Shown here in pieces: positions 11,457 to 12,153 of a stretch of 12,295 nt of DNA. The translations under genes and the position numbers were made by a program. Every line of letters starts with the position of its first letter. The first letter of the stretch is position 1. The notes under the pieces are model-generated. The model was given only the letters and a program-made list of their open reading frames with translations, made no database searches and was not told the DNA's origin. This DNA is from a virus (taxonomy: Duplodnaviria > Heunggongvirae > Uroviricota > Caudoviricetes), in IMG/VR virus record IMGVR_UViG_2531839233_000006; one strand, 5' to 3'.

Positions 11457-12113
11457 TTACAGTCTCCAGTTCTGAGCCTGATGCTGAATGGCATTAGCGC
11501 CGGTGCCAGGTGTTTTAGCACCGCCACTTCCTCCGCTACCGCCAGCCTTATGCATCGCATATGCACCTGCCGCACCCAGACCAGCGCCAACAAGAGAGGC
11601 TCGCCCCTGCTGTTTCGTAAACGCCGCCTGTGCATCCGATTTAGCTTTTGCCAGACTGCTGTCTGCCAGAGAGTTAAAACTCTGTAACGCATCCGCCTTC
11701 TGACCAGAACCGAGAGCAGCAACATCCTGTAGCCCGGCAACATACTTATCTGCCTGCGATACCTGCCCCCGTGTGGTTGTGTCAATCTGCCCGGTTACCT
11801 GGTCACTCTGGTTCGCATTCATTACCGCATTAAAACGACCACTGGATGGGTCAACGCCGGACTGAGCAAGATTACCCGCAAGCTCCTTCCGTGCTTCGCC
11901 AAACTGTTTCTGATACCCCAGATTTGTGGTGCCAGCAATATTGTCGTACTGCTGCTCACTGTTCAGGTCATCGACCTTTTCCATGAAGTTATCTTCAGCC
12001 GGGCGGAGGATATTTTTGTAATCCTGCCACCCTTTCCAGGCCACTTCTTCCTGTGCTATTTGCGCTGCTGTTGGTTTTACTTTGGTATCACCACCGCCTT
12101 TACTTCCACCCAT
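11457..12113 (-). CDS. Hypothetical protein (219 aa), Gly-rich at both ends; first gene after an intrinsic terminator
   Basis: The track ORF begins at 12188, but its first 25 codons translate the terminator hairpin and T-tract (DPAPAGFF = GACCCTGCTCCGGCAGGGTTTTTT). The in-frame ATG at 12111-12113 has AGGGGG about 7 nt upstream. Protein starts MGGSKGGGDTKVKPTAAQ and ends GAGLGAAGAYAMHKAGGSGGSGGAKTPGTG. Confidence 0.7.
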   Translation of the reverse strand: MGGSKGGGDTKVKPTAAQIAQEEVAWKGWQDYKNILRPAEDNFMEKVDDLNSEQQYDNIAGTTNLGYQKQFGEARKELAGNLAQSGVDPSSGRFNAVMNANQSDQVTGQIDTTTRGQVSQADKYVAGLQDVAALGSGQKADALQSFNSLADSSLAKAKSDAQAAFTKQQGRASLVGAGLGAAGAYAMHKAGGSGGSGGAKTPGTGANAIQHQAQNWRL

Positions 12114-12128
12114 AATGGCCCCCTGGAT

Positions 12129-12153
12129 AACAAAAAACCCTGCCGGAGCAGGG
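12129..12153 (-). terminator. Intrinsic terminator upstream of the 219-aa gene
   Basis: Minus-strand read: (A)CCCTGC-TCCG-GCAGGG(T) (plus 12138-12153) followed by TTTTTTGTT (plus 12129-12137). It lies about 55 nt downstream of the candidate stop of the partial upstream ORF and 16 nt upstream of the ATG at 12113. Confidence 0.7.

Follow-up and report, generated by a model that had tools for sequence, protein, structure and literature searches.

Within the 12,295-nt stretch of viral DNA analysed here (the window), an array of co-directional genes is interrupted twice by the same succession of hairpin, T-run, ribosome-binding site and start codon. We asked what two such elements might do inside a single transcription unit. 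Positions 1-12233 of the window are 99.98% identical to Stx2 phage 933W (NC_000924.1), and the minus strand of the window is the late strand of that phage. Its genes form the distal part of the 933W pR'/Q late operon. The two hairpins, hereafter T1 and T2, fall at 46,310 and 49,027 of the 933W genome. Neither is annotated in the 933W or Sakai records, and we found no experimental study of either in the literature. We consider it probable that T1 is a Rho-independent terminator within the late operon, which is about 37 kb long, at the junction between Wp67 and the block Wp68-Wp72, which encodes tail and internal virion proteins, and that T2 is a terminator of the same kind before Wp72. In lysogeny, both would stop transcription by polymerase lacking Q, and polymerase loaded with Q would pass. 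Coordinates are collected in Table 1.

Table 1. Coordinates of features in the window and in related loci (window positions unless another sequence is named)
Feature	Position	Strand	Basis or remark
T1, predicted intrinsic-terminator hairpin GACCCTGC-TCCG-GCAGGGTT with T6	12132..12155	-	terminator scan, fold energy, conservation
T1 core 5' arm, CCCTGC	12153-12148	-	read off the minus strand
T1 loop, TCCG	12147-12144	-	UNCG-type tetraloop
T1 core 3' arm, GCAGGG	12143-12138	-	
T1 T6 run	12137-12132	-	
Ribosome-binding site of 218-aa gene, AGGGGG	12124-12119	-	
ATG of 218-aa gene	12113-12111	-	
218-aa gene, Wp68	11457..12113	-	Sakai ECs_1238; Sp5 ORF76; phrog_611
148-aa gene, Wp69	11008..11454	-	phrog_596
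83-aa glycine-zipper protein, Wp70	10747..10998	-	annotated 'bacteriocin'
421-aa gene, Wp71	9471..10736	-	ECs_1241; Sp5 ORF79
T2, predicted intrinsic-terminator hairpin GCCCGGC-CATTGT-GCCGGGT with T7	9413..9438 (stem-loop 9438-9419)	-	scan, fold energy
2793-aa polyvalent virion protein, Wp72	1020..9410	-	ECs_1242; Sp5 ORF80; GGAG 9410-9407, ATG 9401
Terminator ending the late operon, after the 62-aa gene Wp73	539..559	-	scan
Upstream frame: last 9 codons of Wp67 (FMVFRIAV, stop 12209-12207) fused in frame to a ycgM fragment	12207..12295	-	
Hairpin inside the Wp67-family gene	L001 12684-12713 (933W 45,957-45,986; outside the window); L056 4033-4058; L058 4697-4726; L060 and L062 4700-4725; L065 6144-6169		
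Paired near-identical hairpins (Pectobacterium, Dickeya, Paramixta)	L060 604-629 and 8089-8114; L064 3264-3287 and 10199-10223; L066 2273-2301 and 10366-10389		before the Wp62 homologue and before the giant gene
Cargo separating the Wp71 homologue from the giant gene	L058 7765-8007; L061 7995-9119; L062 7953-9420; L063 9207-11350; L066 9306-10310		RecA-family gene, Paramixta; PIN_8 gene, Serratia; SDH-type protease, Pectobacterium; three reverse-strand genes, Yersinia; reverse 80-aa gene, Aeromonas

An earlier note, made from the letters of the sequence, had described T1 as a hairpin CCCTGC-TCCG-GCAGGG followed by T6, AGGGGG and ATG. All of these elements are present, on the minus strand, reading from 12153 to 12111. 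Two details of that description need correction. First, the ATG is 19 nt past the last T of the run (and 23 nt past the stem), not within 16 nt. Second, the gene encodes 218 amino acids and a stop codon, making 219 codons, rather than 219 amino acids. The T1 stem can be extended to 8 pairs (12155-12136), five of them G-C by the count of the terminator scan. Its folding energy is -15.0 kcal/mol, compared to a mean of -5.8 kcal/mol for dinucleotide shuffles (z = -4.3), and just one shuffle in 200 matched it. In the terminator scan of the window, T1 ranked third among 17 sites.

The same architecture had been said to recur about 2.7 kb upstream. The recurrence, the distance and the layout all hold. 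The partner of T1 is T2, and along the path of transcription T1 is the upstream site of the two. The T2 stem has 7 pairs, of which 6 are G-C, and encloses a 6-nt loop. Its folding energy is -13.6 kcal/mol (z = -3.1). Note that the T-run is found only on the minus strand in both cases; on the plus strand, neither hairpin is followed by one. T1 and T2 thus share the marks of intrinsic terminators: a G+C-rich stem within the range of about 5-14 pairs, a short loop, a 3' U-rich tract, stability in excess of shuffled sequence, and an intergenic site.

T2 also bears on the start of the giant gene that follows it. The encoded protein, Wp72, has LPD5, LPD1, MuF_C and LPD38 domains. In the RefSeq record for 933W, Wp72 begins at an ATG at 9440, within the T2 hairpin, giving a protein of 2806 aa. 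Relatives read ACG at this position. The Sakai annotation instead uses the ATG at 9401 (2793 aa), which has GGAG just before it and is 17 nt past the T2 stem. We conclude that 9401 is most likely the true start of Wp72.

At both T1 and T2, the T-run abuts the ribosome-binding site and start codon of the next gene, which leaves no space for a promoter. The genes beyond would therefore rely on read-through for their expression. A crude consensus scan, confined to promoters of the sigma-70 type, covered positions 12295 to 1020 and detected none on the late strand. Inspection of the 52 nt between Wp67 and T1 gave a single candidate, a TGTAAT hexamer resembling a -10 element but lacking the key A, and we rejected it. 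Any transcript starting in this spacer would in any case lead straight into T1.

Leader attenuators and riboswitches likewise place a terminator hairpin just 5' of the ribosome-binding site and start codon. Unlike those systems, T1 and T2 have no conserved antiterminator structure, leader peptide or Rfam match. A search of the whole window with Rfam, at E-values up to 1, returned a single chance match, to a snoRNA at 401-457, and no family near T1 or T2. For a 96-nt region around T1, folding was on a par with that of shuffles (z = 0.0). In 933W, the 5' arm of T1 could pair with the ribosome-binding site (CCCUG with CAGGG). However, this pairing is lost in relatives where the ribosome-binding site of the 218-aa gene reads GAGGAG instead of AGGGGG, and is a ribosome-binding site still. 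We rejected an attenuator or riboswitch of this type on these grounds.

The upstream end of the window is not phage DNA. Phage sequence stops at a junction at about 12233/12234, roughly 80 nt upstream of T1. There the end of Wp67 is joined in frame to a fragment of E. coli ycgM, which makes up the remaining 62 bases with 100% identity. A 35-mer spanning the junction was absent from 5426 complete E. coli genomes, from GTDB species genomes and from JGI metagenomes. Either the prophage has been truncated or rearranged, or the assembly is chimeric. Given the fusion, T1 would be the first terminator that a ycgM transcript meets in the source genome.

The break also means that the control region of the operon is not visible in the window itself. 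The earlier note had proposed a search for an antiterminator resembling Q or N, and the 933W record supplies one. Q, pR', qut and tR' are annotated there at 20,205-20,748, on the same strand as T1 and 25.6 kb upstream of it, and late genes continue unbroken from this region to 57.9 kb. The layout resembles that of other Q-antiterminated lambdoid late operons, such as lambda, with tR' and its downstream sites, P22 and phage L. Here as there, Q is encoded just upstream of pR', the presumed sole promoter of one long unit that contains intrinsic terminators, and the genes downstream are predicted to lack promoters of their own. The difference is that the 933W late strand is unusually rich in terminators.

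This richness was apparent when we scanned the 37 kb of the 933W late strand for hairpins of up to 31 nt whose folding energy reached -12 kcal/mol and whose next 8 nt included 6 T or more. There were 11 such sites, compared to 3 on the antisense strand and a chance expectation of 0.2 per sequence (from 20 first-order Markov random sequences). All except one are intergenic. Two follow Q, and one each follows argO, stxB, Wp43, the portal gene, Wp55, Wp60, Wp67 (this is T1) and Wp71 (T2); the remaining site is inside Wp67. Weaker sites follow lom and Wp73. The second of these ends the late operon, and is opposed by a plus-strand terminator (485-507) that follows an oppositely oriented gene of the YgiW/YdeI family. 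The layout in which a terminator runs directly into a start codon also occurs elsewhere in 933W: the site between Wp60 and Wp61 is 8 nt from the start, and that between Wp55 and Wp56 overlaps it. The earlier note had drawn attention to two terminators splitting one tight, co-directional array. Both sites are real, and the genes between them are indeed closely packed, with gaps of 2, 9 and 10 nt. They are not a special pair, however, because they are two of about 11 terminators on this strand.

We compared T1 and T2 across five diverged Stx phages and 46 IMG/VR loci, extending down to 74% identity of the Wp71 protein. The T1 stem is unchanged in the five phages and in 42 of the 43 IMG/VR loci that match the T1 region. 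Since the stem never varies in the sequences found, no covariation could be obtained for it. The T1 loop varies from U to C, and the spacer upstream collects substitutions. The one exception (L039; IMGVR_UViG_2617270976_000004) has lost the hairpin by deletion. That deletion, aligned to about 11300-12180 of the window, fuses the spacer just past Wp67 to the interior of Wp69, so that T1, Wp68 and the first part of Wp69 are gone. The locus is probably a defective prophage. T2 is kept in all 46 loci, in three stem variants with no broken pair. Two pairs have changed on both sides, the changes seen being G-C to A-U and G-U to A-U or G-C, and no slid register comes close to the observed pairing. 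Compensatory substitution in T2 and the constancy of the T1 stem beside variable flanks point to continuing selection on structure.

Homologues of Wp68 with 44-63% identity led to more distant prophages in Salmonella, Citrobacter, Serratia, Yersinia, Pectobacterium, Dickeya, Paramixta and Aeromonas. In seven of these eight genera, a strong hairpin followed by T residues lies within about 30 nt of the start of the giant gene, and the stem sequences are unrelated. The genera concerned are Salmonella, Citrobacter, Aeromonas, Pectobacterium, Serratia, Dickeya and Paramixta. Prophages of Pectobacterium, Dickeya and Paramixta each carry a near-identical hairpin, AAGCCTCGC...GCGGGGCTT with a T-run, twice per phage: once before the tail-tip gene (the Wp62 homologue) and once before the giant gene. 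T1 has a narrower distribution. It is limited to the Escherichia group and Citrobacter, where an identical hairpin precedes a homologue of the 218-aa protein with just 56% identity; Salmonella has a weakened form, CCGC-TCCG-GCGG. In six more distant genera T1 is missing, and the homologues of Wp67 and Wp68 are 7-10 nt apart. Hence, T1 is not indispensable to the module.

The sequence of T1 is itself widespread. Exact matches to a 22-mer, ACCCTGCYCCGGCAGGGTTTTT, were found in at least 120 species that are unrelated and span many phyla, ranging from Acinetobacter to Prochlorococcus. By our own arithmetic, chance would provide about 0.1 matches in the collection searched. Most matches are terminators with an A-tract, hairpin and T-tract, and only one, among the matches listed, precedes a Wp68 homologue. 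This distribution identifies T1, from its sequence, as a generic terminator with a C(UNCG)G tetraloop, arrived at by convergence. A role for T1 as a specific protein-binding or recombination site was considered and is ruled out by the same occurrence in at least 120 unrelated species.

How might such terminators function in the late operon? [quoted passage not shown] In lysogens of the Stx phage phi24B, lom (CM18) is strongly and constitutively expressed, and has been described as 'uncoupled' from phage control. Conversely, the 8-kb gene downstream (CM7; 97% identical to Wp72) rises only upon induction, like the terminase and capsid genes, as measured by qPCR (PMC3342100). In 933W, the gap between lom and Wp67 (L001 12866-13155, outside the window) contains, on the late strand, a reading frame for a Hok-like protein of 46 aa and an Rfam match to sok that falls below threshold (35.6 bits, E = 4e-6). 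A 'microRNA-size' RNA of phi24B, 24B_1, maps to this gap (PMC4426718). Because both map there, 24B_1 may derive from a hok/sok-type locus. The hok-like locus is likely a further source of constitutive transcription.

We propose the following sequence of events. In the lysogen, ordinary polymerase would enter from upstream, with lom, the hok/sok-like locus and spurious starts as likely sources. It would halt at T1 or T2, so that the virion genes beyond stay silent. Upon induction, Q would load onto polymerase at pR'/qut, 25.6 kb away, and make it resistant to termination. This polymerase would then pass T1, T2 and the remaining terminators of the late strand. Both termination in vivo and its override by Q are inferred. 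The genes that would be kept silent in this way matter for the particle. Sp5 cannot form tails without ORF79 (Wp71) and ORF80 (Wp72), and deletion of ORF76 (Wp68) strongly reduces infectivity, nearly abolishing it (PMC5155283). Of the two options in the earlier note, a deliberately attenuated or an antitermination-controlled unit, the second agrees with the biology of 933W: the Q, pR', qut and tR' region is upstream, infectious particles require the genes beyond the hairpins (PMC5155283), and the giant gene is expressed on induction only, compared to constitutive lom (PMC3342100). That option is correct in principle. It describes textbook lambdoid late-operon architecture and not a new control system.

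Note that T1 has neighbours of a similar kind. Besides the terminator of lom, there is the hairpin within Wp67, and these two mean that T1 may be redundant as a barrier. The internal hairpin has a stem of 9-13 bp and a T-rich tail. In eight of nine genera it is strongly predicted, 67-101 nt into the Wp67-family gene, and Paramixta has a weaker version at that point. The Aeromonas copy is changed in both arms (GCCTGC/GCAGGC has become GCCATCC/GGGTGGC), and the encoded peptide is altered. Because arms and peptide change together, this hairpin suggests selection on nucleic-acid structure, not protein.

Terminators inside late operons are a recognized and common feature of P22-like phages, and their roles are described as unknown (PMC8022706). 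The authors of that study, working with phage L, name two candidate roles. One is the blocking of spurious transcription that has not been antiterminated. The other is partial termination, and this points to the first alternative for T1 and T2. They could act as partial attenuators even when Q is present, removing a fraction of late transcripts, such that distal genes, especially the 8.4-kb gene, are dosed below the head genes. It fits such a role that seven genera keep a terminator just ahead of the giant gene although the hairpin sequences are unrelated. Against it, polymerase modified by Q reportedly runs through intrinsic terminators (PMC4914094). We think attenuation of this sort unlikely. 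Even so, it is compatible with our main explanation.

A second alternative concerns the origin of the hairpins. Lambdoid late operons can carry morons, cassettes of promoter, gene and terminator, with lom and bor of lambda as examples. T1 lies downstream of lom, which is expressed in the lysogen, and of the hok/sok-like locus, and variable cargo occupies both the T1 and the T2 junctions in relatives. Between Wp67 and Wp68, Salmonella has a 102-aa gene, a terminator and a small membrane reading frame, and then the weakened T1-like hairpin. Between Wp71 and the giant gene, cargo is found in five genera (Table 1). T1 and T2 might therefore be leftovers of cargo insertions at mosaic junctions, whose accessory genes have since been lost, and would now be mainly neutral junction sequence or recombination boundaries. 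Both junctions being cargo hot spots, and the six genera that lack T1, would suit this history. The compensatory changes in T2, and the invariant stem of T1 beside variable flanks, do not. Nor does Wp67, the next gene upstream of T1, which belongs to the structural module and is not cargo, with homologues in Salmonella, Aeromonas, Pectobacterium and Serratia that are 38-69% identical, making it conserved across five genera; the variable genes among relatives are lom and the hok-like genes beside it. T1 is therefore not simply a moron terminator, and we rejected its assignment to a lom/Wp67 moron in that form. In its broader version, as a relic, the reading is rather unlikely.

The third alternative places the function of T1 and T2 at the level of RNA. 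They might guard the 3' ends of a cut late transcript from exonucleases, stabilize upstream segments, or end a small RNA bound by Hfq. Stable RNAs have as their standard 3' module a stable hairpin with a UNCG tetraloop and U-tail, and small RNAs of Stx phages are known, for example StxS (PMC7547250) and, in the gap between lom and Wp67, 24B_1 (PMC4426718). However, we found no published small RNA at the position of T1 or T2, and the lack of any Rfam match near them, together with the unremarkable folding of the 96-nt T1 region, also speaks against a structured RNA. We give this explanation little credence. Ordinary operon boundaries, with a promoter for each segment and hairpins that terminate fully under all conditions, are hardly tenable, given that the crude scan (blind to promoters not of the sigma-70 type) found no late-strand promoter in the array, that stem and start are just 23 and 17 nt apart, that transcription begun upstream of either hairpin would be terminated by it, and that induction raises the giant gene just as it does terminase and capsid genes (PMC3342100). 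We found nothing in favour of such boundaries.

We return, then, to terminators that would stop polymerase lacking Q and be passed by polymerase carrying it. What this analysis adds is the annotation of terminators not previously listed, a corrected start for the giant gene, and a comparative picture of terminator-marked cargo junctions; current understanding of late-operon control is unchanged. A bolder view would be that terminators in the late operons of these podoviruses form a selected, position-specific checkpoint system, rather than being incidental. We hold this only as a doubtful possibility, suggested by the unrelated hairpins before the giant gene in seven genera, the paired hairpins of Pectobacterium, Dickeya and Paramixta, and the hairpin inside the Wp67-family gene. 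If it were true, the sites would mark junctions where cargo can dock, and the terminators would render the insertion of foreign genes harmless. Furthermore, a potentially harmful 8-kb gene would be kept strictly dependent on antitermination. The two junctions are in any case marked as conserved cargo-insertion sites in this phage group, which may aid the reading of prophage mosaics. Stx phages are of medical importance, and stx itself is part of their late operon. Should T1 and T2 act as proposed, they would help to explain how lom and a hok-type locus can be expressed continuously beside silent virion genes, and why all virion production, like toxin production, needs Q.
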